A DNA stretch of 64,000 bases from Shigella phage SH-1. Location of the stretch: the sequence record PQ642266. One strand, written 5' to 3'. How positions within the stretch are numbered: position 1 is the stretch's first letter; every line of letters starts with the position of its first letter. A model generated the notes under the pieces. That model had not been told where the DNA came from, did not search any database, and saw nothing but the letters and a program-made list of their open reading frames with translations. Below, in pieces: positions 16,772-62,739 of this stretch. The position numbers and the translations under genes were made by a program.

Positions 16772-16852
16772 TCACTGGCGTCCGAAGACGCCTTTAGTTT
16801 TAAGATTGTTACGATAAAACTGCATTACATGTTCGTTATGGAAATTACTCAT
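16772..16852 (-). CDS. stp: Stp peptide (host anticodon nuclease modulator)
   Basis: 26 aa [26 protein letters not shown], matching T4 Stp as I recall it; ATG overlaps ndd stop. Confidence 0.75.
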
Positions 16853-17310
16853 TAGTATGCCTGCAAAACAAATTTAAAGTTATCAGCCAACATGCGGTTC
16901 ATTTCTTCAAGTGTTTGATACTCAGAATGATGATTACGAGTAAACGCCAAAGCTAACTGACCTTTTCCGAATCCCGTCGTCAGAGGTTTCATCTTAGAAG
17001 CAGGTAAATAAAATACCGTGTATGTAACATTGTTATTTGCAATAGTACGCGCAAGCTGAGACCGACGTTGACGAATATGACTTAGAACTGCGCTGAATCC
17101 TTGCTTAGAACGTTGATTACCTACATAAAATCGTGCAGACACACATGGATTACTAAATAGACGACCATCTAATTTACTTACTAAAAAGTAAAATCCAGGT
17201 TTAGATAAAATATCTTTATGTGGAACTCCCAAAAACCATTCACCGTTCTTGATTGTACCAATAACGGTAGCGCCTGCATTGTTCAGATCAGTAACAGTCA
17301 TATATTTCAT
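16852..17310 (-). CDS. ndd: nucleoid disruption protein Ndd
   Basis: Matches T4 Ndd from [28 protein letters not shown]...; ATG at 17310 (track ORF extends upstream). Confidence 0.85.
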
Positions 17311-17370
17311 ATTAATTTCCTCTAAATTATTTTCTACTCCAAGGCCGCATGAATACACACGGCCATTAAA

Positions 17371-17586
17371 TTAATCGTCGCAGTCGACGCTTAATTCCCA
17401 GAACTCTTCTACAGTATAAGTTTCAGTATCATTTTCAATACAGAAACGTTCATTACTGTTATTTGCTAAAGTAGCGTTAACTGTCATTTTCTCGCTAGTG
17501 CTCTTAAGAGGTGAAATACGAATTAACTGATCACCACTATCTAAGCAAAAAATTTCACCAACTTTTACATCTTTAAAGATTTTCAT
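17371..17586 (-). CDS. hypothetical protein (71 aa)
   Basis: Track ORF with ATG start. Confidence 0.5.
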   Translation of the reverse strand: MKIFKDVKVGEIFCLDSGDQLIRISPLKSTSEKMTVNATLANNSNERFCIENDTETYTVEEFWELSVDCDD

Positions 17587-17701
17587 AATTCACCTCAAGG
17601 AGTATAAAATCCAAATGCAGTTGTTGACCATCCCATCCAATATGGGAAATTTGCACCAATGTAAAACATAAGAATATAAAACCAAATGCTTAGTAAATTC
17701 A

Positions 17702-17899
17702 TTATTTTACACCATTCCAAATTGTTTCAACCACAGATTTTAAGCCATTTTGGTGAATATCCATTCCGACAACTGCCATCAAATAGATTCCAACTACAAC
17801 TGAACCTAAGGCAAAAATCAGCATGAAAATGAATAAAGCTGGAAAAATATTATCGAAAAACCATTCAATAAATGTAAAAGCACTGCGTTTACGCTTCAT
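17702..17899 (-). CDS. small membrane protein (65 aa)
   Basis: Hydrophobic; ATG at 17899 preceded by GAGGA; track start at 17920 is TTG. Confidence 0.45.
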   Translation of the reverse strand: MKRKRSAFTFIEWFFDNIFPALFIFMLIFALGSVVVGIYLMAVVGMDIHQNGLKSVVETIWNGVK

Positions 17900-23083: not shown

Positions 23084-24900
23084 TACTGACTCATCCATTC
23101 TTTACGAAGGTCAGCATTATCTCCCATGAGCATTTCAAAAAGCTCTTTCCAGTTCTCAGGAAGTTTAACAACATCATATACTGGATTTTGAATCATCTCA
23201 CGATATTCAGATTTTTCCAAAGAGCCAAGTCCTTTAATATAACGGATGCTATGTTTAGGTAGAGCATCTTTGGCACTCTCATATTCAGCGACTGTATAAA
23301 ACCATTCTTGTTTTTTACCGACCTGAGCGATGATTACAGGAGTTTTGACAAAGCGAATTCTTCCTTGTTCAAACAGTTCTGGCCAATTACTAAAAAATCC
23401 GAGCAGAGAAGGATAAATGCTTCCTAGACCATCATGGTCAGCATCGGTCATAATAGCAATATTATGATAATTTAAGTTTTCAGCCTTTTCACCAAGAACT
23501 AATCCAGTGATTGCGCAAATATCAAACAGTTCTTTATTTTTAAGCATATCAGCATATGACATACCCCAACTGTTGAGAACTTTACCACGTAATGGATAAC
23601 CACCATGAAGTTCTTTATCACGAACATCAATAAGATATCCGATAGCGGAATCACCCTCAGTCAAGAAAAGAGTAGTGTCAGCATCTTTACCACAAAGATT
23701 CGCTTTAATATGTTTATGAACCTTAGCTTTAGAAGCCTTTTTAGCTGCTTTAGTTTCTGCTGCTTTTTCTGCCGCCAATTTACGAGCCAAAGCAGCTTCA
23801 ATAATTGGCATTAAAATTGCTTCATTATTTAAAATAGCACGTGAAATCTTTTTAGCATCAAGTTGAATATGACTACGGATTTCACCAAATGGAGAAGTCA
23901 AACGCTCTTTAGTTTGAGAATCAAATCGCATGTTTTTCATATCACGAACAAACATAACGATAGTCAAACATTCTTTAACACGTGCTTTAGTTACATCAAT
24001 TTTGAATTTACGTTTGATTTGCGGAATAAGGTCTTCACAAATATCATCCATAACGCAGTCAATGTGATGACCACCATTCTTAGTATGAATGTTATTGACG
24101 TATGTTAATTGACGAAAACCATCCGGTGAACGACCAACCGCAATAGAACAATTTTCTTGTTCTTGAACGATAGCATGTTCATCATATTGGCGTGCATATT
24201 TCTTAAAATTACCCTGAACCTTTTTACCATTAAAGGTAAATTGAATATCAGGATAAACTACTGCAAGTGTTTGAAGACGATCTAGTGTAATGTCAAGATA
24301 AACCTGAGATAGCTCATTAGTTTCAAATGACATAAAATCAGGAATGAAAGTAACACGTGTTCCTTTCCATTTTCCAGGAATAGTTTCCCATGATTTATTT
24401 TCCATGCCATTTGAACAACGAACTACAATATTATTTTGACCATCGCCAGTTTCACCGACAAACATCACAGAAAAAATGTTAGTTAAACTAGAACCAACAC
24501 CGTTCATACCACCGGTGACGCGTTCTTTATCATCACCAAAGTTACCACCTGCTTTTGGAATAGTCCAGGCAGCAACAGGTCCAGGAATTTCTTCACCAGT
24601 AGGTGTTTTAACCATCGCTTGTGGAATACCACGACCGTTATCTTCAACTGTTACTTGATTGTTTTTAATAGTAACATTAATTTTATTCGCGAATTTAAAC
24701 TTAGTACGAATACCTTCATCTACTGAGTTATCGATAATTTCATCAATAAGCTTAACAAGACCAGGTACATACTGAACACTTTCCCATTTACCAAACAGAA
24801 AGCGCTCATGCATTTCATTAGCAGAAGAACCAATGTACATGCCGCTACGCTTTTTGATATGTTCAATATCGCTCAGAATTTTAATTTCATTCTTAATCAT
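23083..24900 (-). CDS. 39: DNA topoisomerase II large subunit (uninterrupted gene 39, includes the part T4 encodes as gene 60)
   Basis: 605 aa continuous ORF starting MIKNEIKILSDIEHIKKRSGMYIGSS (GHKL ATPase N-terminus); no stop or bypass element. Confidence 0.9.
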   Translation of the reverse strand: MIKNEIKILSDIEHIKKRSGMYIGSSANEMHERFLFGKWESVQYVPGLVKLIDEIIDNSVDEGIRTKFKFANKINVTIKNNQVTVEDNGRGIPQAMVKTPTGEEIPGPVAAWTIPKAGGNFGDDKERVTGGMNGVGSSLTNIFSVMFVGETGDGQNNIVVRCSNGMENKSWETIPGKWKGTRVTFIPDFMSFETNELSQVYLDITLDRLQTLAVVYPDIQFTFNGKKVQGNFKKYARQYDEHAIVQEQENCSIAVGRSPDGFRQLTYVNNIHTKNGGHHIDCVMDDICEDLIPQIKRKFKIDVTKARVKECLTIVMFVRDMKNMRFDSQTKERLTSPFGEIRSHIQLDAKKISRAILNNEAILMPIIEAALARKLAAEKAAETKAAKKASKAKVHKHIKANLCGKDADTTLFLTEGDSAIGYLIDVRDKELHGGYPLRGKVLNSWGMSYADMLKNKELFDICAITGLVLGEKAENLNYHNIAIMTDADHDGLGSIYPSLLGFFSNWPELFEQGRIRFVKTPVIIAQVGKKQEWFYTVAEYESAKDALPKHSIRYIKGLGSLEKSEYREMIQNPVYDVVKLPENWKELFEMLMGDNADLRKEWMSQ

Positions 24901-34832: not shown

Positions 34833-35042
34833 TTAAATTACATGACTATTTATAATAAATTCTTGCGGAACGCTAAAATATCCAATTTTAGTTAATATAA
34901 CAACATCACCGTTAATAACTACCGGAGAATAATCGGCTGGAGCATTAAACTTCCAATGAGCTCTAATATTATATCCATCAGAACCAAATGCTCGACTAGC
35001 CGGTCTCCCGGCTTTTTGCCATGCATAAAAATCAAATTTCAT
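34833..35042 (-). CDS. hypothetical protein (69 aa)
   Basis: Track ORF with ATG start. Confidence 0.45.
   Translation of the reverse strand: MKFDFYAWQKAGRPASRAFGSDGYNIRAHWKFNAPADYSPVVINGDVVILTKIGYFSVPQEFIINSHVI
34847..34854 (-). promoter_or_regulatory. T4-type late promoter (TATAAATA) for soc
   Basis: Minus strand TATAAATA about 30 nt upstream of soc ATG. Confidence 0.65.
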
Positions 35043-35239
35043 TTTGAATGCTCTATAATTAATTTTAAGGCTTCTTCATGCACCTTACCTAATTGTATAT
35101 GTCCAGTTTTAATTGTGTAAGCTTTGTGGAGCTGATTAGATAAGAGCTCACATACGAGCTCCTTGTCATAATTTTTAAATAGCTGGTCAATACGTTTCTT
35201 GTGGGCTTTCTTAAGCTGGCGTTTATTTAAACGAGCCAT
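35039..35239 (-). CDS. hypothetical basic protein (66 aa)
   Basis: Track ORF with ATG start. Confidence 0.45.
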   Translation of the reverse strand: MARLNKRQLKKAHKKRIDQLFKNYDKELVCELLSNQLHKAYTIKTGHIQLGKVHEEALKLIIEHSK

Positions 35240-35757
35240 TAATAACCTCGGTCTTGACGAGCGAAGTTTTCAGCATTTTTCAGATAATAAAGTTTAAAGA
35301 TTTCTTCAGCCGTAAGACCAAGACCTTGGAACATGTTCAGAACGAAATGAAGAATATCAATCATTTCGAATTTAATTTCCAACTGGTCTTGTGGAGACAA
35401 ATCAGTAATTAGAGTTTCACGGCGTTCACCATGCTGTGACTTCCAAGGCTTCCATACAGCAGATGCATCTTTTTCACCATTGCTCATACCGCCAAGAGAT
35501 GTCAGAAGTTCACGGAATTCATCATCAATGTAATCTTTCTGATTACGCAGCCAATCAACAACTTCGCCTGCAGTAGCCAAATCATCAGGATGACGGTTAT
35601 ATTCAGGTTTATCTTTAGCTAAACGAACCTGCAAAGATTTCTGCATATCAAGCATAACTTGCAGTGGGTCTTTTTCGTCACCGAGAATATCCCAGTATTC
35701 ATTTTGAGCTTTATCAGCGCCTTCGATCAGTTGCGAACATTCATTAAAGTAAGCCAT
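35239..35757 (-). CDS. 56: dCTPase / dCTP pyrophosphatase gp56
   Basis: 172 aa from MAYFNECSQLIEGADKAQNEYWDILGDEKDPLQVMLDMQ...; matches T4 gp56; track ORF extends upstream. Confidence 0.85.
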   Translation of the reverse strand: MAYFNECSQLIEGADKAQNEYWDILGDEKDPLQVMLDMQKSLQVRLAKDKPEYNRHPDDLATAGEVVDWLRNQKDYIDDEFRELLTSLGGMSNGEKDASAVWKPWKSQHGERRETLITDLSPQDQLEIKFEMIDILHFVLNMFQGLGLTAEEIFKLYYLKNAENFARQDRGY

Positions 35758-35791
35758 TATTTTTCCTTTCAATTCATGGGTTAGTAGATTA

Positions 35792-35817
35792 ATTATACAA
35801 TAAATATATAAAGCAAT
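35792..35817 (-). promoter_or_regulatory. MotA-dependent middle promoter for gene 56
   Basis: Minus strand TTGCTTTA (MotA box) then 11-12 bp then TATAAT. Confidence 0.5.
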
Positions 35818-35828
35818 AAGGAGGACAT

Positions 35829-37591: not shown

Positions 37592-37885
37592 TTACTCACC
37601 TACCACTTCAGCGATGATATTTTTATTATTGAAGTTTTTATCACAATACAGAACGTAATTATACTGCATTACACCACCAGACTTAAGCTGTTTTTGCACT
37701 TCAGCTTTCATTTCAGGACGATCACGCTCAACGATATTCATAATATCCGCTTCAATTTGAGTTTCAACTTCAGTCTGATCTGCAGTCATAGACCATTCAC
37801 ACAAGTCTTTATCATAACCTGCCATAGCAGGCTGAGCAGCGCAAGAAGATAAAGCAAAAATTGCAGCAAAGATAAATTTTTTCAT
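37592..37885 (-). CDS. sp: periplasmic protein, Spackle-like
   Basis: 97 aa with signal peptide MKKFIFAAIFALSSCAAQPAMA; size and position of T4 sp. Confidence 0.6.
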   Translation of the reverse strand: MKKFIFAAIFALSSCAAQPAMAGYDKDLCEWSMTADQTEVETQIEADIMNIVERDRPEMKAEVQKQLKSGGVMQYNYVLYCDKNFNNKNIIAEVVGE

Positions 37886-37988
37886 GATAATCTCCTCAGT
37901 AGTTTATGTTTATAGTATCTCAATTTTCAACAAAAGTAAACACTAGTAGAAGCAAACAGACAAATTGCAATAATTGGTGATTTCAGTT

Positions 37989-38183
37989 TCATTCTTCTCC
38001 TCCTTCATGTTGATGAACATATTCTTTTTCAAGTCTAGAGCACAAGTTTTCATATTCAACTAATAAAAATGAATCAAGTGCGTTATTTCTATGCTGACAC
38101 CGTTCTTGTAAAGAATCCATCTCTGAGCGTTGTTCTTGTGTTAATAATTGATAACCTGATACTTTAGACATTTTGTTCTCCAT
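37989..38183 (-). CDS. hypothetical protein (64 aa)
   Basis: Track ORF. Confidence 0.45.
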   Translation of the reverse strand: MENKMSKVSGYQLLTQEQRSEMDSLQERCQHRNNALDSFLLVEYENLCSRLEKEYVHQHEGGEE

Positions 38184-38235
38184 TTACTCGTTTGTTTTGA
38201 TAGGTCTATAATAACATGTTTAAAACAAAAGTAAA

Positions 38236-38490
38236 CTATTTTATTTCCTCAAGTTCGTTAATCAATAAAAGTTCTCTGACGCTAAAAACAAAGAAAAATG
38301 TGTTCCCATCAACAAGAGCATGACCGCTAATAGAACACCCTCTGCGGAATTTAGAAACTTCACAATCTAGAACTGTAAAGGGTTTTAATCCTATGACTTT
38401 AGCTGTGCGTCTATTCAGTTCACAACCACTCGCGAATTTTTCCAAATCTTCTTCTGATTTAAACTGATATTCTCTATTAACTAGCATCAT
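38236..38490 (-). CDS. hypothetical protein (84 aa)
   Basis: Track ORF. Confidence 0.5.
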   Translation of the reverse strand: MMLVNREYQFKSEEDLEKFASGCELNRRTAKVIGLKPFTVLDCEVSKFRRGCSISGHALVDGNTFFFVFSVRELLLINELEEIK

Positions 38491-38508
38491 TTTCTTTTCT
38501 CCGCGATT

Positions 38509-38549
38509 AGCTGATAGAATTACTATAACACAACTCTATCAGCTTGTAA
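38509..38549 (-). promoter_or_regulatory. early promoter whose -10 lies between 9-bp inverted repeats
   Basis: Minus strand GTTTACA, 16 bp, TATAGT; arms gctgataga / tctatcagc. Confidence 0.5.
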
Positions 38550-38553
38550 ACTA

Positions 38554-38853
38554 CTATTTTAAAACTTCTGTATAATCACATGTTACAAACTGTTTCTCTA
38601 ACTTGACGATTTTACGAAAGTATCTTTTGCATTGGCGAATCTGCCGCTTTGTAGGGCGCACAGCAAATTTAATAAATTCCACTCGACCAAATGGAGGACT
38701 TTCTTCTGCTGGAATATCTAACACCAATTCCCACGTATCTGCAACAAGTGCTTTGAATTGAGTATTTTTCCTGACATTATACGGAGTAGGTTTAAATAAA
38801 ACAATATGCATATTATCCTCGGCAATCCACTTCACATACTTTCTTGTCATCAA
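38554..38853 (-). CDS. hypothetical protein (99 aa)
   Basis: Track ORF. Confidence 0.5.
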   Translation of the reverse strand: MMTRKYVKWIAEDNMHIVLFKPTPYNVRKNTQFKALVADTWELVLDIPAEESPPFGRVEFIKFAVRPTKRQIRQCKRYFRKIVKLEKQFVTCDYTEVLK

Positions 38854-40853: not shown

Positions 40854-42009
40854 TTAACTGATCTAGGTCAGTTTCTAAATCAGCTGCTGATTTACTTTTA
40901 CTTTCTGGAGATTTAAATTTTTCAACCTTTGAGTTAATCAATTCATCAACTTCAGCTTCAACAATTTCATTACTATCAATAGCACCTAACTGATAAGCGC
41001 GTTTAATAGCATCTCGGAATGGTTGATGCTTAAATAAAGGACCCCAGAATGTAGTGCAATTGGTATCTTTTGCACGCCAAGATTTTTCTTCGCGAATCAT
41101 CTCGCCGGTTTCTTCATCAAGAAATTCACGAGCATACCAACCATTTTTAGGTTTTACTACAAATCCTAATTCAAGAGCCATATCTAACAATCCGGAATAA
41201 GGATCGATGCCACCGTCAAATTTAACATCAATAAAGAATTTACTTTTTTCTTTAACGGTACGAGATTTTTCTACATTTAGAACAAATTGATACCCCTGAA
41301 GATCAGAACCATCTTTAATCTGGCGCTTACCGATAATGAATACAGTATCAGCCGAATACATTACGCCTGTACCACCTGTCATCACGGTTTTACTAAACAT
41401 TTCAATTGTTTCAATTGTATGGTTAACCGCAACGCACGGAATGTTTTTAATACTAAAATAAGGAGTAACAATACGGAATAATGACTTCAGTGATTTAGCA
41501 CGAGTCATATCTGCCACGGATTTTTCATTCAAGGCATCTTCCGTTTCTTTCTTAGAAGCCATATTACCGATTGAGTCGATGAATACAATAACTTTTTCAC
41601 CACGCTCAATAGCTTCAAGCTGATTCACCATATCAATTTTCAGCTGTTCAACTGACTGAATTGGCGTATGAATTACTCGTTCCGGGTCAACTCCCATGGA
41701 TCGCAAATAAGCTGGAGTAATACCAAATTCGCTATCATAGAATAAACAAACCGCATCAGGATATTTGTTCAAATACGCCGCAACCATAGTCAAAGACATA
41801 TTTGATTTAAAGTGTTTAGAAGGACCTGCAAAAATAGTTAAACCAGACTGCATACCACCATCAATCGCGCCGGAAATAGCGATATTGAGCATTGGAATTT
41901 TTGTACGGATTACATCCTTTTCATTAAAGAATTTAGATGTAGTCAGTTCAGCAGTCATTTTAGAAGTGGAAGCTTTAATCAAACGGGATTTTAAATCTGC
42001 AATAGACAT
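40828..42009 (-). CDS. uvsX: RecA-like recombinase UvsX
   Basis: 393 aa; matches T4 UvsX (..DLKSRLIKASTSK.TAELT.SKFFNEKDV.RTKIPM.NIA.SG...). Confidence 0.9.
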   Translation of the reverse strand: MSIADLKSRLIKASTSKMTAELTTSKFFNEKDVIRTKIPMLNIAISGAIDGGMQSGLTIFAGPSKHFKSNMSLTMVAAYLNKYPDAVCLFYDSEFGITPAYLRSMGVDPERVIHTPIQSVEQLKIDMVNQLEAIERGEKVIVFIDSIGNMASKKETEDALNEKSVADMTRAKSLKSLFRIVTPYFSIKNIPCVAVNHTIETIEMFSKTVMTGGTGVMYSADTVFIIGKRQIKDGSDLQGYQFVLNVEKSRTVKEKSKFFIDVKFDGGIDPYSGLLDMALELGFVVKPKNGWYAREFLDEETGEMIREEKSWRAKDTNCTTFWGPLFKHQPFRDAIKRAYQLGAIDSNEIVEAEVDELINSKVEKFKSPESKSKSAADLETDLDQLSDMEEFNE

Positions 42010-42062
42010 TCATTTTTTCCATAGGCATCATTATATTTTCCTCACTGGTTAAAGATAGAGTA

Positions 42063-42089
42063 ATTATAACACAATAAATTTAGGCATTA
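42063..42089 (-). promoter_or_regulatory. possible MotA-type middle promoter for uvsX
   Basis: Minus strand aaTGCCTAAa (one mismatch to MotA box) then about 13 bp then TATAAT. Confidence 0.3.
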
Positions 42090-42929
42090 ATCAACTGCTA
42101 TTGGATGAATAGCATTAAACTTATGAAACACTTCTGATTTTTCTTTGCGCGAAACACACATGCGAAGAACCTTTAATGGCTCGTCTTCTTCACCCAACGA
42201 TTTTCGTTTTTCAATATTAGAAGTTTTCCAACGAGCTTGCTCTGGAAACTCTTTATTGATTTGCTCAAGAGCTCTATTATGTTTTGAATTACTACGAATT
42301 GAACTACATCCGCCTGGAGCTTGTGCTTTTCCAGACACAACCAGATATTTGAACAAAGCCAAATGCGGATAACCTTGGTTAATTAAATTGAGAAATGCAT
42401 ACATATCTTCGCATAAATCAATTTTTCCATACCCAATTTGTTCTGTAGTAAGTTTCCCGAGGTCATACCAAGTATTCGTGAATCCATATGAATTTTCACG
42501 ATAATTACCCCAAGATGAAGTAATTTTAAAAATAGGTAGACGAGCATGACCATGATAATACCCGCAATCCATGGCATCTTCAACGTATTGAATCAATTCA
42601 TAGAACTGTTCACGAGTTAACTGATTAATTTTATCTACGCAGCGACGATCATCTTTCTTTCGCATTGAACTCATACGAATAGTAGTATCATCATCAATCA
42701 TCCAAATTCGTTGACCTGCATACATATCAGTAATTGCTTTACGAGTTCCAGCAATTCCATTAACATCATCAGGAATAGTTATAATTTTAGCCCTAGACCC
42801 GTAAGCGTCATAATAAGCTTTTTCTTCATGTTCACGTACTACAATATGAGGTTCATAATCAGTCGGAAACATATCAAGGGCAGAAACTGCCCCTACGCGT
42901 TGATAGCTTGGAATTACGAATTGAATCAT
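42087..42929 (-). CDS. GT-A fold glycosyltransferase (DxD motif) at the T4 beta-gt locus
   Basis: 280 aa from ATG at 42929 (overlaps gene 42 stop); N-terminal FVIPSYQR and IWMIDDD DxD motif; not the T4 beta-gt sequence. Confidence 0.6.
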   Translation of the reverse strand: MIQFVIPSYQRVGAVSALDMFPTDYEPHIVVREHEEKAYYDAYGSRAKIITIPDDVNGIAGTRKAITDMYAGQRIWMIDDDTTIRMSSMRKKDDRRCVDKINQLTREQFYELIQYVEDAMDCGYYHGHARLPIFKITSSWGNYRENSYGFTNTWYDLGKLTTEQIGYGKIDLCEDMYAFLNLINQGYPHLALFKYLVVSGKAQAPGGCSSIRSNSKHNRALEQINKEFPEQARWKTSNIEKRKSLGEEDEPLKVLRMCVSRKEKSEVFHKFNAIHPIAVD

Positions 42930-43666
42930 TTCCACTCACCGTTATAATCTTTTTTCGCAATATGGGTTTCGCCAGTTTTCCACCAATGGTCAACCAAATA
43001 AAAATGACGGGAATACACATGAAGGCTCCCGACATTCCATATAATGGAACCTGCTTTATACTGACGAGTTGAATCACCTGCATTCAAATCAGATACTAAT
43101 TTATCTAGTACGTATTTTTGCCATGCATAATCATTACGGAATCCGAAGACCACGTCATTTGAACGCATGTTAACCACTGCATTAATTTTCTTATCACGAA
43201 TCAGGTACTGTACTGTATTAGTACACATGAAATCTGACATGCCATCTTTATTGTAGTCAAATTGCATGGATGGACGAGTATAAATCATGATACCACGTCG
43301 AGAATCAGGATTTTGACCAAGTTCAGCTAAACACATGTCATACTGGGCATAGTTATCTTCTGACCAGATGGCCCAACCATAATTCGAGTTAATTTCGCCT
43401 TTAGAAGATGCTACCTGCTGCCAAATCTTTGGTGTTTCACCTGGAATATCTTTAACAAACAGACTTTGAGACTTATACCATTCAAGTTCACGCTGAATGT
43501 ATTCATCATTAAGAGCGCCAAAAATAAAAGGTTCATCTGCTACAAATGATGCACCAATAATTTCAATAGTTTTAACCCCGGTTTTATCAATTACGAAATC
43601 TTTTTCCTTTAATGCAAGACCCAAATCAAGACGGATTTCTTCAACTGTCATATAATCGTTAATCAT
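42926..43666 (-). CDS. 42: dCMP hydroxymethylase gp42
   Basis: 246 aa; near-identical to T4 gp42 (..TVEEIRL.LGLALKEKDFV.DKTGVKTIEIIGASFVADEP...). Confidence 0.9.
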   Translation of the reverse strand: MINDYMTVEEIRLDLGLALKEKDFVIDKTGVKTIEIIGASFVADEPFIFGALNDEYIQRELEWYKSQSLFVKDIPGETPKIWQQVASSKGEINSNYGWAIWSEDNYAQYDMCLAELGQNPDSRRGIMIYTRPSMQFDYNKDGMSDFMCTNTVQYLIRDKKINAVVNMRSNDVVFGFRNDYAWQKYVLDKLVSDLNAGDSTRQYKAGSIIWNVGSLHVYSRHFYLVDHWWKTGETHIAKKDYNGEWK

Positions 43667-52936: not shown

Positions 52937-53123
52937 TATCTAAAATGTTGAAGTTAAAAGATACAGCCCAGTCAGTGCAGACCGTGACCTTTTTAATACA
53001 ATTATCTTCAACCTCTAACGGTTCAAACCAATATTCAATAATTTCTTTATGCCCAATATCATCTTTTACTTCACATTCAAAATGCTGACTCATCATAACA
53101 TTTTTAAATTCATCAAAAGTCAT
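52860..53123 (-). CDS. hypothetical protein (87 aa)
   Basis: Track ORF with ATG start; 4-nt overlap with gene 47. Confidence 0.45.
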   Translation of the reverse strand: MTFDEFKNVMMSQHFECEVKDDIGHKEIIEYWFEPLEVEDNCIKKVTVCTDWAVSFNFNILDNDTPKSLQDMAVSCIKDAYCEVFDI

Positions 53124-54139
53124 TGTGTTGCCTCTACATATAACTGATTTGCATATTGAATAAGTGCTTCGCGATCAGAATCAGTGATGTCTGGAATTGC
53201 ATTAATGTATTCTTCCATCAACGTCTGAAGAGATTGAACTTCAACTTCTTCACTATCATCTGACTCGACAGAGTTATCAATCTTTGACACAACTCGTAAT
53301 GAATGCACAACTTTTTCTAGTTCAGATTCGAACTTCGTTAGATTTTTGTCTACTTCAGTTACTATAACACGTACTGATAGATTTGTAAAATCTTTATAGT
53401 CAATTTTTCCCTTAAATGGATATTGAATTCGACGATGCCAGGTAGTGTTGTTTGGAATAAATTCCATTCGTTCTGTTTCTGTATCAAACATCCAGAACCC
53501 GCGAGGGTCATTCTCGTCACCTGCAGTTAGTGTCCATGGTGTCCCAATATATCTGACGTTAGCAGCCTCAGAGATAGTATGGAAGTGACCAGACCACACC
53601 TCTTTATAAGTCTTAAGGAAATCAGGTTCAAGACCGTGAGATTTCATTCCTTTATAAAAATAAAATCCATTCAGCTCCCAGTGACCGACACAAAAAGAAG
53701 CAGATGAAGTTTTGATGTGTTCAAGAATTTCACCAGTATTTTCTTCGCACATCCAAGGAATTAAATCAATCAAACATCCGTCAAAATCTACTGTAGTAGG
53801 CTTATCATATACTTTAACATTAGGATATTTAGCCAAAAGCTCAGTAGAAGCATTTGGATGCATTACATTTTTATAGTGGAGATCGTGATTTCCTACAATA
53901 GTATGTAATGTGATTCCAGCGGCATCAAGCATTTGAACTATTTCACGGGCAAACTCCATAGTTTTATGCGTGATCGCTTTTCGTACATCAAAAATATCAC
54001 CGTATTGAATCCATACAGTAATTCCATTTTTCTTAGAATATTCTATCGCTTGCTTAATTCCATCAATTTGAATACCGCGAATCCATTCATCATCAGCTTT
54101 AACGCCTAAATGCCAATCACCCAAGTTTAGTATTTTCAT
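53120..54139 (-). CDS. 47: recombination endonuclease subunit gp47 (Mre11-like)
   Basis: 339 aa; phosphoesterase motifs (NLGDWH, GDIFD, GNHD). Confidence 0.9.
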   Translation of the reverse strand: MKILNLGDWHLGVKADDEWIRGIQIDGIKQAIEYSKKNGITVWIQYGDIFDVRKAITHKTMEFAREIVQMLDAAGITLHTIVGNHDLHYKNVMHPNASTELLAKYPNVKVYDKPTTVDFDGCLIDLIPWMCEENTGEILEHIKTSSASFCVGHWELNGFYFYKGMKSHGLEPDFLKTYKEVWSGHFHTISEAANVRYIGTPWTLTAGDENDPRGFWMFDTETERMEFIPNNTTWHRRIQYPFKGKIDYKDFTNLSVRVIVTEVDKNLTKFESELEKVVHSLRVVSKIDNSVESDDSEEVEVQSLQTLMEEYINAIPDITDSDREALIQYANQLYVEATQ

Positions 54140-54740
54140 GGTGTCTTTTCCATCCTAATTTAGCTGCTTTTGAAACTAGTTCTTTAATTTTTCCTTTTGT
54201 CCATTCAGGACCAGGAGGTTCATGACATAACATTTGCTTAACTCCGTTATTATACCATTTTTTACCTTTATTATGTGATGAAGCTTTAAATTTATTTGAC
54301 CTTCCTTTTACATAACCTTCTGGAATATACGGTAAAAAGGCAGATTTTCCTGTTAATGGGTCATGTGAATGTATGTTTCCTTTACAATTATGAGAACCAT
54401 ATAATGGATGATTTTGTCCTTTAATATCTCTTCCAAATGAACCTTTTGGAGCAGCATATGACATATTAAAGAATAATGGATTTTTAACCGCATCATGCAA
54501 ACGTTGATAATATAGCTCGCATTTAATAGCTTCTTCGCGTGTATCAAATTCATCTAAAATGCATGAATCAAATAAATGTGGGTTATTTGAAAGTTCTTCA
54601 TTATAAATTTTCTTATACTTTTTAGATAAAACTGATCCATGATATCCGGCTAAATGCCTGTCTAAAGATGTAGATCCAATATAAAAAGGAGGAAGTTTAT
54701 CTCCACTATATATTGTTAAATAAGTTATATATTTTTTCAT
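54117..54740 (-). CDS. GIY-YIG homing endonuclease (Seg-like)
   Basis: 207 aa; GIY-YIG catalytic motifs: ITYLTIY, FYIGST, R in LDRHLAG, E in REEAIKCE, N in FFNMS; GQNHPLYGSH; overlaps gene 47 start by 23 nt. Confidence 0.7.
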   Translation of the reverse strand: MKKYITYLTIYSGDKLPPFYIGSTSLDRHLAGYHGSVLSKKYKKIYNEELSNNPHLFDSCILDEFDTREEAIKCELYYQRLHDAVKNPLFFNMSYAAPKGSFGRDIKGQNHPLYGSHNCKGNIHSHDPLTGKSAFLPYIPEGYVKGRSNKFKASSHNKGKKWYNNGVKQMLCHEPPGPEWTKGKIKELVSKAAKLGWKRHHENTKLG

Positions 54741-54916
54741 ATATCAAGAACCGTCATTGAAATGCAAAATAAAATTATTGAAATAAATCCATCTGGAGTA
54801 CTAAAGAACCCAATCCAACATGCTCTAGTGAATAGATAAAATGCAAGAAAAAGTATCACATATCCAAGAAATATCATTATATCAAACTCCGTATAAAGCT
54901 AAAGGGCCGAAGCCCT

Positions 54917-56119
54917 TTATTTTGTAATAATGTCAAACTGTTCTTTAAAGCAGAAGCTTGAATCTTGATGCTGATACAAAAATTCATAAGCTTTTTCACG
55001 TTCACGGTCATAAAGAGCTCGGTCAGATGACAGTTCTTTAATACGTTCAAATGTTGATTCCATGTCATTTTCATCAAACCAAACGATGCCGCTATCATGA
55101 GAAATTAACGGAGTATTATCAACACGGAATTTTAAATTTTCGCCAGTAGATTTCCAAAATACTGGAATTGTTCCACATGCACCAAGCTCGAGATGAGTAT
55201 ATTCTAAAGAACGTTGTAGATATTTTTTATCTAATTTACTCAGCTGATAACCAAATCCGGATTTACTCATGCGTTCAAGCATTTCGCTATTTACATAACG
55301 GTCGAGAATTTGCGTCGGCAAATTAGGAGCAATTTTAATTTGGTCTACTTGATGAAGACGATAATACTCGTATGGAATTCCTTTTTCTTTAATAGGAATG
55401 AACGCTGGAGAACGTTCCAGACCTTCCATAATAGTGCTTAGTCCTGCAGGTTTAAGATGTTTTTCGTGAAAATCAAACATCTGATAAAAACCTTTCCATG
55501 TAGTAGTACGACCAATCCAACGGTTGATATTCATGTTAATTTCAGAAACATCTTTCCAGTAGGTTGATCGAACTTTCGCAATATCCATAGGAGGCTGAAA
55601 GTTATATACGATCGGTGCTTCTTCAATATCATCAAACAGAGAAACAGTTTCCGGATACCATTCTTTCATCAAAACTTTATTAAAGTCACCATTATCAGAA
55701 TGGCTAAAAATAACATCAGCTCGACGAACAGTTTCTTCTAATCCCAAATTTCGGCGCAAAGAAAGAGAAGAATGGTCATGCTGATAAACTACAACACGAA
55801 CCGAAGGTTTAATGTTATCAATAATTTTTTTATAGTTATTAATTGTGTCTTCTTCAACTGAAGTAGCAGGAACTGAATTGATAACTAGAATATCACAATC
55901 ATTTACCAGCTTAAGTGTTTTATCGTATTCTTTTGCCAATAAAACTGGAATTGAAAATGACTTATAATCATGCGCGCAATTACGAGTAAATGATTTATCT
56001 TTAGCATAAACCAAAGTTACTTCATGACCATTTTTAATAAACCAATCACGCTGCTCAAGAGAAAATTTAGTTACACCGCAACCTTCAAGACCTCGAGCCA
56101 TAAAAATACATACTTTCAT
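54917..56119 (-). CDS. a-gt: DNA alpha-glucosyltransferase
   Basis: 400 aa; matches T4 alpha-gt N-terminus (M.ICIFMARGLEGCGVTKFSLEQRDWFIKNGHEVTLVYAKDKSF). Confidence 0.9.
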   Translation of the reverse strand: MKVCIFMARGLEGCGVTKFSLEQRDWFIKNGHEVTLVYAKDKSFTRNCAHDYKSFSIPVLLAKEYDKTLKLVNDCDILVINSVPATSVEEDTINNYKKIIDNIKPSVRVVVYQHDHSSLSLRRNLGLEETVRRADVIFSHSDNGDFNKVLMKEWYPETVSLFDDIEEAPIVYNFQPPMDIAKVRSTYWKDVSEINMNINRWIGRTTTWKGFYQMFDFHEKHLKPAGLSTIMEGLERSPAFIPIKEKGIPYEYYRLHQVDQIKIAPNLPTQILDRYVNSEMLERMSKSGFGYQLSKLDKKYLQRSLEYTHLELGACGTIPVFWKSTGENLKFRVDNTPLISHDSGIVWFDENDMESTFERIKELSSDRALYDREREKAYEFLYQHQDSSFCFKEQFDIITK

Positions 56120-56362
56120 TTAATATCCTCATTGTTTTGGTTTATTTTACCAAAAATTTATAAAGCAATATAGGAGCCGAAGCTCCTATCCACATAATAC
56201 ACCATACAGAGGCTCATTAGAGCTTCTAAATTTTATGCGCTTATATGTTATAGTTCCTTCTGCTTTAGCTTTATCATGAGCCTCTTTAAAGCGTCTCATC
56301 ATTTCTACTTTAGAGGAACGAATTTTATTATAATCTATTTCACAAGTCTGGGCGTTCATCTT

Positions 56363-60454: not shown

Positions 60455-60925
60455 TTAATCATGTTTCCACACCCCATCGGTATTTGACCAAAGTCGCTGA
60501 TTATCTGAACCTCGCCACAGCTTTTTGGTCGGAAGATTTTTCTCATACTTCCCATCAATAATAACATCAACATATTTAAGCATTTCTAGTTGTTTAATAT
60601 CTTCAAACTTATATCCTGTCCACAACCAAATGCTTTTATTGGGATAAAGATTTTTTACCGTTTGAACAATGCAATGAACAGCATCTCGGTTATCAGGATA
60701 AAGAGGGTCTCCTCCAGTTATAGTTAATCCTTCTATATAATCATTATTCAAACATTTAATTAATTGTTCTAGTGTTTCACCAGTGAATGGAACGCCATTT
60801 CTAGCATTCCATGTTGATTTATTATAACACCCTTCACATTTATGCAAACAACCTGTAACGAAAAGAACGACCCTGCATCCAGGGCCATTCACAAAATCAC
60901 AGGGATAAAATCTATCGTAATTCAT
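60455..60925 (-). CDS. nrdG: anaerobic ribonucleotide reductase activating protein NrdG (radical SAM)
   Basis: 156 aa; cysteine cluster CLHKCEGCYN. Confidence 0.9.
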   Translation of the reverse strand: MNYDRFYPCDFVNGPGCRVVLFVTGCLHKCEGCYNKSTWNARNGVPFTGETLEQLIKCLNNDYIEGLTITGGDPLYPDNRDAVHCIVQTVKNLYPNKSIWLWTGYKFEDIKQLEMLKYVDVIIDGKYEKNLPTKKLWRGSDNQRLWSNTDGVWKHD

Positions 60926-62739
60926 TGGTGTTTAACCCTATGCATGATTTCTTTATTTTTGCCAAGATTAAATCCGCGTTCATTCGGATTTCCCAAATAA
61001 CCACAAGTTCTTCTTATTGTGTTCATCTTTTTAGGATCAGTTTCTCCACAAATAGAACAAACAAACCCGTTTTCAGTAGGAGTCATTTCATGGGTACTTC
61101 CACACGTAAAACATTTATCTACTGGCATATTAACACCAAAATAATCTAAATGTTGTGCAGCATAATCCCATACAGCCTCAAGACCTTTTAGGTTATTTTT
61201 CATATCAGGAAGTTCAACATAAGAAATGTGACCACCTGTCGCAATGAAATGATATGGGGCTTCTCGAGAAATCTTTTCAAACGGAGTAATATTTTCTTCT
61301 ACTGAAACGTGGAAACTATTAGTGTACCAACCTTTATCAGTAACATCCTTTACACTTCCATATTTCTCAGTATCAAGTTTACAGAAGCGATAGCACAGGT
61401 TTTCAGCAGGAGTAGAATACAAGCTAAAAGCAAAACCAGTTCTTTCAGTCCACTGCTTAAGACGAGCATTCATTTTAGTTAAAATTTCCTGTCCAATATC
61501 ACGACCGACAAGAATATTCAATTCGTGAATACCAATGTATCCTAAGGACACTGAACTTCTACCGTTTTTAAATAACTCAATTATATCGTCATCAGGTTTA
61601 AGACGAACCCCGAATGCACCTTCTTGGTAAAGAATAGGAGCAACAGTAGCTTTAACTCCTTTTAAGGAACTAATTCTACACATCAAAGCTTCAAAACACA
61701 AATCCATTCGTTCATTGAACAATTCGGCAAATTTCTGTTCATTGAATTGTGTTCCAATATAAGAATCTAACGCAATGCGAGGAAGATTCAGTGTTACAAC
61801 GCCAAGATTATTACGTCCATCAAGAATTTCATTACCAGTCGAATCTTTCCATACGCTCAAGAAACTACGGCAACCCATTGGAGAAACAGGAATAGATGAA
61901 CCGGTGATAGCTTTATTGTTCTTAGCTGAAATAATATCAGGATACATTCTTTTGCTTGCACACTCTAGAGCAAGCTGCTTAATATCATAGTTCGGATCGT
62001 CTTTATAAAGATTAACACCTTCTTCAACAAACATAACAAGTTTAGGGAAAATAGGAGTTATCCCATCACGACCAAGACCTTTAATACGATTTTTCAGAAT
62101 TGCTTTTTGAATCATTCGTTCAGGCCAGTCAGTTCCCGTACCAAATGTAATTGTTACAAAAGGCGTTTGTCCGTTTGAACTAAAGAGAGTATTTACTTCA
62201 TATTCATAAGCTTGGAATGCATCGTATACGTCTTTTTCTGTTTTAGATTGGGCATAATTCAACGCATCAGCGATTTGCCATTTTTCTGCATCCTCAATAT
62301 GTTTTGCATAGGTGCGTTTAACATAAGGAGAAAGGACTTTATCTACATTCGCAAAAGTCGTTCCACCATATTGATGGGAAGCAACCTGTGCAGTAATTTG
62401 TGCCATAATTGCAGTAGCAACACCGATTGATTTAGGAGTTTCAATCTGTGCATTACCGAGCTTAAATCCGTTCTCAAGCATTCCTTTTAAATCTACTAAA
62501 CAGCAATTAGTAAATGGAAGAGCAGGGGAATAATCAATATCATGGAAATGAATAATTCCGCTTTCATGCGCTTTCATAATAAAAGACGGGACCATATTTT
62601 TGGCAATGTGTTTAGACACAATACCAGCCATAAGGTCCCGTTGAGTTGGAAAAACACGAGAATCTTTATTAGCATTCTCGTTTAAAAGGTCTTTATTAGT
62701 TTTATGAATCAATCCTTCAATTTCTTTTTCAATTGTCAT
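60922..62739 (-). CDS. nrdD: anaerobic ribonucleoside-triphosphate reductase NrdD (no intron)
   Basis: 605 aa continuous ORF; C-terminal zinc ribbon CFTCGS...CSICG and glycyl-radical motif RTCGYLG. Confidence 0.9.
   Translation of the reverse strand: MTIEKEIEGLIHKTNKDLLNENANKDSRVFPTQRDLMAGIVSKHIAKNMVPSFIMKAHESGIIHFHDIDYSPALPFTNCCLVDLKGMLENGFKLGNAQIETPKSIGVATAIMAQITAQVASHQYGGTTFANVDKVLSPYVKRTYAKHIEDAEKWQIADALNYAQSKTEKDVYDAFQAYEYEVNTLFSSNGQTPFVTITFGTGTDWPERMIQKAILKNRIKGLGRDGITPIFPKLVMFVEEGVNLYKDDPNYDIKQLALECASKRMYPDIISAKNNKAITGSSIPVSPMGCRSFLSVWKDSTGNEILDGRNNLGVVTLNLPRIALDSYIGTQFNEQKFAELFNERMDLCFEALMCRISSLKGVKATVAPILYQEGAFGVRLKPDDDIIELFKNGRSSVSLGYIGIHELNILVGRDIGQEILTKMNARLKQWTERTGFAFSLYSTPAENLCYRFCKLDTEKYGSVKDVTDKGWYTNSFHVSVEENITPFEKISREAPYHFIATGGHISYVELPDMKNNLKGLEAVWDYAAQHLDYFGVNMPVDKCFTCGSTHEMTPTENGFVCSICGETDPKKMNTIRRTCGYLGNPNERGFNLGKNKEIMHRVKHQ

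Follow-up and report, generated by a model that had tools for sequence, protein, structure and literature searches.

A 64,000-nucleotide (nt) stretch of DNA from Shigella phage SH-1 (sequence record PQ642266; hereafter, the window) carries at positions 54117-54740, on the minus strand, an open reading frame (ORF) of 207 amino acids (aa) that is analysed here as a candidate homing endonuclease gene. A first-pass annotation had placed it between gene 47 and the alpha-glucosyltransferase gene a-gt, with its end overlapping the start of gene 47. In a blastn map, the window and T4 are collinear over the interval that extends from rnh via rIIB/rIIA to gene 49.1; on the strength of this collinearity the window can be assigned to Tequatrovirus. 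Across the junction, the nearest records, each at 99.1% identity, are those of Shigella phage SH-2 and Escherichia phage vB_EcoM_SA20RB. The features of the locus are listed below, with the evidence for each in brackets.

54117-54740, minus strand: GIY-YIG endonuclease ORF, 207 aa, ATG to TGA (ORF listing, homologs, GenBank match, and the ratio of non-synonymous to synonymous substitution rates, dN/dS)
53120-54139, minus strand: gene 47, 339 aa, SbcD/Mre11-like nuclease subunit and proposed target (Pfam Metallophos and T4 annotation)
54117-54139, minus strand: overlap of the ORF 3' end with gene 47 codons 1-8, 23 nt
54140-54740, minus strand: segment of 601 bp absent from T4, T2, and T6 (T4 pairwise alignment and 17-genome junction comparison)
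54737-54877, minus strand: gene 47.1, 46 aa, predicted membrane protein (phrog_6693, E 1.5e-31)
54917-56119, minus strand: a-gt, alpha-glucosyltransferase, upstream gene of the transcription unit (Pfam AGT, E 3e-235)
54900-54919, minus strand: G+C-rich hairpin GGGCTTCGGCCC just past the a-gt stop and upstream of 47.1, identical in T4 (terminator-like scan)

The ORF stands alone among phage genes, outside any intron or intein, and is co-oriented with its neighbors. It lies between 47.1 and 47; the TGA of 47.1 and the ATG of the ORF share the sequence ATGA at 54737-54740. The ORF listing agreed with the first-pass annotation on the length of the ORF and on its 23-nt overlap with gene 47. The reported position was correct on the gene 47 side, but a-gt is not adjacent: 47.1 intervenes, and a-gt is one gene beyond it. 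Because an identical protein has been deposited in GenBank as a hypothetical protein (UIU28003.1) and homologs reach an E value of 7e-137, a chance ORF is excluded, and the ORF is a real, intact gene.

The protein is divided into three parts.

54456-54740, minus strand: GIY-YIG catalytic domain, residues 1-95 (Y7, Y20-I21-G22, E75, and N92)
54381-54455, minus strand: flexible linker, residues 96-120, with GQNHPLYGSH, half of a NUMOD3-like motif (predicted local distance difference test, pLDDT)
54153-54380, minus strand: putative DNA-binding region, residues 121-196, with two beta-hairpins, the motif KWYNNG...PGPEWTKGK, and a helix (model)

An alignment of 31 full-length homologs (36-77% identity) was used for profile-profile comparison and AlphaFold2 modeling. 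Over residues 1-100, it matched a profile of I-TevI and T4 SegA-E with an hhalign probability of 97.2% (E 3e-11). The motifs are found at residues 5-7 (ITY), 19-24 (FYIGST, with YIG at 20-22), R28, E75, N92, and 107-116 (GQNHPLYGSH). Y7, Y20, I21, G22, E75, and N92 are invariant among the 31 homologs. In the hhalign output, Y7 and Y20 of the ORF align to Y6 and Y17 of I-TevI and N92 to N90, and E75 is one column off E75 of I-TevI. The AlphaFold2 model has a pLDDT mostly above 90 for residues 1-90, which follow the order beta-beta-alpha-alpha-beta-alpha and form the three-stranded sheet with flanking helices of the GIY-YIG family. In Foldseek searches, the structural neighbors in the PDB were all GIY-YIG nucleases, with no beta-beta-alpha-Me protein among them; a search of viral models gave 89 matches at E <= 1e-3, with names almost all of the GIY-YIG, Seg-like, NUMOD, or intron endonuclease type. 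The GIY-YIG identity put forward in the first pass is thus borne out by the Seg/I-TevI profile-profile matches, the fold, and the invariant Tyr/Tyr/Glu/Asn.

All the signature motifs quoted in the first pass are present, but GQNHPLYGSH, which had been counted with the catalytic signature, belongs to the linker, where it looks like the opening half of a NUMOD3 repeat; in more distant homologs, complete NUMOD3 repeats occupy this position. The linker is disordered in the model (residues ~96-120), with pLDDT below 50 at residues 99-107 and 113-117. The C-terminal part is modeled as two beta-hairpins and a helix, and its alignment with the C-terminal module of SegE suggests that it may bind DNA. 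When residues 1-100 were used as the query, this type of N-terminal domain proved common (1,282 cluster representatives at E <= 1e-3), most clusters being fused to NUMOD3 arrays; the full-length architecture with a SegE-like C-terminus was found in only about 28 proteins. Matches of ~54% coverage were considered as sharing the C-terminal half and rejected, since the same query showed that the nuclease domain is shared and the C-terminus differs.

In the PHROGs, the ORF matched phrog_10820 ("HNH endonuclease") strongly and phrog_314 ("homing endonuclease") more weakly; an NCBIfam scan of the protein gave no match. Its cluster mates are variously labeled "putative homing endonuclease", "GIY-YIG domain-containing protein", and "HNH endonuclease". 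That the ORF is an HNH endonuclease, as stated in RefSeq records and PHROG 10820, is supported solely by these database labels, and its probability is next to nil. No HNH family surfaced in Pfam at E <= 0.1 or in NCBIfam, none of the Foldseek neighbors has the beta-beta-alpha-Me fold, and a member of its UniRef cluster is named GIY-YIG domain-containing protein. Since no HNH family or fold surfaced in any search, the widespread "HNH endonuclease" annotation is an error, refuted by the fold and profile results. The correct annotation is GIY-YIG (Seg-like) homing endonuclease.

The insertion is precise. The heptamer ATGAAAA stands at both ends of the 601-bp segment, at 54734-54740 and 54133-54139. 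In the gene sense, the T4 junction reads ...CTTGATAT|ATGAAAATTTTAAATTTAGGTGATTGG, and the window reads ...CTTGATAT followed by the inserted ATGAAAAAATAT ... AAAAGACACC and then ATGAAAATACTAAACTTGGGTGATTGG. The ORF therefore occupies the translation start context that T4 gives to gene 47, and the start of gene 47 lies within the last eight codons of the ORF. Compared with T4, gene 47 has four silent changes at nt 9, 10, 15, and 18 (window 54131, 54130, 54125, and 54122). Different genera share a conserved gene 47 5' end, which encodes MKILNLGDWHLG, and the C-terminal (H/N)EN residues conserved in the ORF family are the other-frame reading of gene 47 ATGAAAAT. At three of the four sites, the variant base is also present in the gene 47 start of a phage of a different genus (L026), which suggests that a short donor tract may have been imported along with the gene. 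The four changes were also considered as proof of target-site immunity; this was rejected because they are inside the 3' end of the ORF and must travel with it.

The distribution of the ORF was examined in the GenBank phage collection, a record being scored as ORF-bearing when its copy at this junction reached 95% identity or more. The first-pass annotation had noted that T4 has no endonuclease gene here. This held true, and T2 and T6 are likewise empty, with 47.1 directly abutting 47 in all three (the T4-type empty junction), but 68 other Tequatrovirus records carry the gene at this site. The exact T4-type empty junction was found in 358 records and a near-exact one in 86 more, about 450 empty in all; the ORF is thus sporadic, present in about 13% of the sequenced close relatives. 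The junctions of 17 Tequatrovirus genomes (6 with the ORF and 11 without) were then compared over indel-free flanks of 1.4-1.5 kb per side. The four silent sites were the sole flanking sites to track the presence of the ORF. Polymorphisms beyond nt 45 of gene 47 and more than 38 nt upstream are mosaic and unlinked to the ORF; therefore, the ORF sits on many different backgrounds.

Between two lineages of copies, one represented by the window, SH-2, and P922 and the other by Lutter and fPS-90, there are 17-20 synonymous and 6-8 non-synonymous changes over the whole ORF (dS about 0.15). The resulting dN/dS is 0.08-0.12; hence, purifying selection acts on the ORF protein. Of the Tequatrovirus copies examined, the five that are fully sequenced are all intact. 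KNP1 and KNP5 were considered as decayed copies with an internal deletion and rejected, as what looks like a deletion is a stretch of N in both sequence records.

Five genera have homologs immediately 5' of gene 47: Tequatrovirus, Jiaodavirus, Roskildevirus, Mosigvirus, and Dhakavirus. Homologs of 60-70% identity overlap or abut the gene 47 ATG in KPV15 (Jiaodavirus), FBB1 (Roskildevirus), AV109 (Mosigvirus), IME08 (Dhakavirus), and the IMG/VR genomes L027 and L030. The neighbors further upstream vary among these phages (a-gt, a-gt.2, or other small ORFs). In KPV15 (L043, 2274-2984), three separate ORFs are annotated across the homolog, and the annotated gene 47 begins at an internal Met; the split reflects either decay or a sequencing error. 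In IME08 (L046, 2473-3035), the homolog is unannotated, and the N-terminal extension of the annotated gp47 runs into it.

Foreign tracts of gene 47 lie beside several of these homologs. When ORF-bearing AV109 (L045) was compared with ORF-less JS09 (L048), 119 differences fell within nt 1-330 of gene 47, versus 18 within the remaining 690 nt, a step in divergence from 36% over nt 1-330 to 2.6% thereafter. AV109 is without a-gt.3 and a-gt.2 and has about 315 nt and the homolog in their place. The same step was seen when L030 was compared with L026 and L027, and L027 showed a milder 5' excess of gene 47 differences relative to ORF-less relatives. The element has travelled with a 5' piece of foreign gene 47 sequence, and such a tract beside the homolog is the product expected of break-initiated gene conversion. 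Nuclease genes have been reported at the boundaries of genetic exchange in phages, which matches the foreign gene 47 tracts (PMC10448857). With the junction query, JS09 and EP02SG gave a match to its right half only. A competing insert in JS09 was considered and rejected; JS09 is a Mosigvirus without a-gt or 47.1 and has no endonuclease gene at this site.

Promoter scans of the insert revealed no excess of sigma-70-like promoters, no T4 late promoter (TATAAATA), and no MotA box; because the insert is without promoter signals, the ORF is a promoterless cassette. A textbook MotA-type middle promoter conserved with T4 is found upstream of a-gt near 56170 (56140-56175; ATTGCTTTA, 12 nt, and TAAAAT), and a MotA-like box is found at 54952. 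RNA folding around the starts of the ORF and gene 47 was no more stable than that of shuffled sequences, giving no sign of structure-based translational control. The ORF is probably translated by coupling to 47.1. The same promoterless, overlap-coupled arrangement has been reviewed for T4 segC, segF, segG, and several mob genes (PMC2988022).

The T4 counterpart most similar over the whole length is SegE. ORF residues 19-191 matched SegE residues 16-199 (hhalign 97.1%, E 6e-11), and the two proteins share the GYxGS motif and a C-terminal W(Y/V)NNG...PxG(W/F)xKGR module (FWVNNG...PDGFIKGR in SegE). Both are of about 205 aa, free-standing, and immediately 5' of a co-oriented recombination gene. 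SegE is active and is inserted upstream of uvsW, which it targets (PMC2988022, Table 1). Their identity is only ~28% (BLASTP, 196 aa), and they differ in locus (inh/uvsW for SegE and 47.1/47 for the ORF), in the 23-nt overlap of the ORF with its downstream gene, and in that the activity of the ORF is inferred only. The closest T4 catalytic domain is that of SegG (BLASTP 28% over 109 aa; hhalign 95.8%), which shares with the ORF the unusual YIG form K(L/T)PP(F/Y)YIGS, an NP.(F/Y)FN.(S/V)YA segment, and the promoterless cassette, and differs in its unrelated C-terminal half, its locus, and its target gene. SegG is encoded between genes 32 and 59 and cleaves gene 32 of T2. BLASTP of the T4 proteome gave no relative closer than SegG and SegE. 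I-TevI, in contrast, is encoded inside a group I intron (T4 td) and is 16-19% identical to the ORF; the Pfam scan found neither a zinc finger nor a helix-turn-helix in the ORF, a further difference from I-TevI. Phage endonucleases combining GIY-YIG with NUMOD3 (more than 1,100 clusters at 50% identity) are 45-73% identical to residues 1-100 and have NUMOD3 arrays, whereas the ORF has a short SegE-like C-terminal region. A review of T4 mobile elements lists no endonuclease gene at 47.1/47 (PMC2988022, Table 1), and a review of T4-family genomes describes seg-like genes as unequally spread among close relatives (PMC2993671). The ORF is an uncharacterised Seg-like gene of a well-known phage type and will not surprise a specialist.

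Taken together, the ORF is probably a free-standing, promoterless Seg-type homing endonuclease, active or recently active, that cuts ORF-less relatives near the start of gene 47. In this scheme, the enzyme would be synthesized at a low level from early-middle transcripts of a-gt/47.1/47/46, its translation coupled to that of 47.1 via ATGA. On co-infection with an ORF-less relative of the T4, T2, or T6 type, it would cut both strands at or close to the 47.1|47 junction, the conserved 5' end of gene 47 being the likeliest place; the genome that carries the ORF would itself be immune. The recombination machinery of the phage would then repair the break using the ORF-bearing genome as the template, copying the ORF and a variable neighboring stretch into the recipient ("intronless homing"). 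Markers in the neighborhood would be carried along, which would bias their inheritance, as the first-pass annotation had proposed for mixed infections. The sporadic distribution, the constant place before gene 47 in five genera, and the foreign tract of about 330 nt beside the AV109 homolog lend this proposal indirect support.

Several observations weigh against this interpretation. The score for Pfam GIY-YIG (PF01541) was 19.9 bits, under the gathering threshold of 22.6; PF01541 matched 14 of the 31 homologs at E <= 0.01 (best 2e-4), and the low score is a sensitivity limit of the model, not an argument against the fold. The PDB sequence-profile search returned nothing relevant, only a spurious nucleoprotein at E 0.98. 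The column of R28, the candidate counterpart of the catalytic Arg27 of I-TevI, holds K or R in the majority of the 31 homologs and is not invariant. In hhalign, the stretch of I-TevI with R27 is left unaligned as an insertion, and, because active SegE has an Asp at the R28-aligned column, the variation does not appear to disqualify activity. The tract linked to the ORF in Tequatrovirus amounts to just four sites within the ORF itself, whose linkage is trivially expected because they belong to the element, and it does not independently support either a target or immunity. About nine ORF-less records have the ORF-type bases at a clean empty junction, including SHFML-26, UGKSEcP1 and P2, PBM-1, EPIMAM01, Ec_YwIITB1, and two BCP phages, so the variant circulates without the ORF; RB14 is intermediate for the four bases. 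These alleles could be precise losses via the ATGAAAA repeat, or an ancestral or resistant allele. Finally, a literature search revealed no paper describing this gene.

Two other explanations of the persistence of the ORF were weighed. The nuclease may have been domesticated, that is, kept for the benefit of the phage and no longer spreading by homing, with a role in the exclusion of competitors, in anti-parasite defence like Odn of ICP1, which is derived from a homing endonuclease gene, or in 47/46 regulation like the autorepression by I-TevI. The strong purifying selection, the stable position before gene 47 across genera, the conserved (H/N)EN residues encoded in the overlap, and the gene 47 translation start inside the ORF are compatible with such a role, for which precedents among homing endonuclease genes are cited in PMC10448857. 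Nevertheless, we consider domestication unlikely, since an ORF present in about 13% of close relatives on mosaic flanks follows the pattern of a mobile optional element and not of a fixed useful gene, and foreign gene 47 tracts lie alongside it in other genera. Somewhat more improbable still is an inactive relic, which once homed, has lost cleavage, and is kept because its deletion would harm gene 47 expression. The variable Arg position, the three-fragment annotation of the KPV15 homolog, and the ORF-type silent changes retained at clean empty sites, which are compatible with loss events, speak for a relic. It is opposed by the dN/dS of about 0.1 that the two copy lineages, with a dS of about 0.15, show across the entire ORF, by the invariance of the catalytic Tyr, Tyr, Glu, and Asn down to 36% identity, and by the five intact copies of five.

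Beyond the activity of a Seg-type homing endonuclease in this phage, we tentatively suggest a broader possibility, which we regard as doubtful. The ORF may belong to a gene-47-specific Seg lineage that has stayed with the gene 47 start in five or more Tevenvirinae genera, with a recognition site over the GDWHLG metallophosphoesterase codons of the Mre11-like gp47. Homing would then have repeatedly swapped as much as about 330 nt at the 5' end of gene 47 for foreign alleles, and the four silent changes (codons 3-6), also found in the ORF-less "scar" alleles, would be cleavage-resistant variants in a cycle of gain, immunity, and loss. If so, a homing endonuclease shapes the evolution of the nuclease thought to resect its breaks.

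Other mobile genes also differ among these phages. A different gene of 855 or 615 nt, which the window does not have, is found between 46.1 and 46 in SHFML-26, Lutter, T2, and T6 (L034 3993-4847, L039 1-777, L042 3993-4607, and L047 496-1350). It is annotated as a homing endonuclease in SHFML-26, Lutter, and T2 and as a hypothetical protein in T6. Because of this separate gene, the 46/47 cluster is a repeated landing site for endonuclease genes. Across the window, the phage has far fewer endonuclease genes than T4. The HNH gene mobB, which T4 has between a-gt and a-gt.2, is absent at 56110-56135 (T4 37817-38679 has no counterpart), and a-gt.2 (56186-56359) directly follows a-gt. In the blastn map, the T4 segment of the gene 60 3' end, 60.1, and mobA, as well as mobC and the nrdD intron with I-TevII, have no counterpart at 23418-23483, 60905-60925, and 62201-62204. 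segF is absent at 34854-35276, where a replacement of about 420 bp holds two small ORFs of 69 and 66 aa; gene 56 (35276-35797), the target of SegF, is 77% identical to T4, versus about 95% for the neighboring DNA.

The dam methyltransferase gene of T4 lies in a segment (T4 16825-17725) that is without a counterpart at 35797-35818, and dam appears to be missing at this position. The T4 segA and b-gt site corresponds to 41997-42944, where a 282-aa ORF (42087-42935, minus strand) matches Pfam TAGT glycosyltransferase (E 1.3e-9); its presence in place of segA and b-gt implies a set of glucosylation genes different from that of T4. Between sp and 61.4, about 600 bp (37942-38546) are absent from T4 and hold two small ORFs (64 and 84 aa), neither of which has a Pfam match; this is not an endonuclease gene.

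What this analysis adds to the known Seg-like genes is the strict tie to gene 47 across genera, the co-transferred gene 47 tracts, and the ORF-less alleles with ORF-type codons. If the enzyme is active, the 47.1/47 junction would be another site on the map of T-even intronless homing, and mixed infections would show localized marker exclusion around 46/47 and a-gt, which would be relevant to crosses, cocktail stability, and engineering. The gene-47-tied family, together with its foreign tracts, offers a clean natural system for the study of co-conversion and of the gain-loss cycle of free-standing endonuclease genes.

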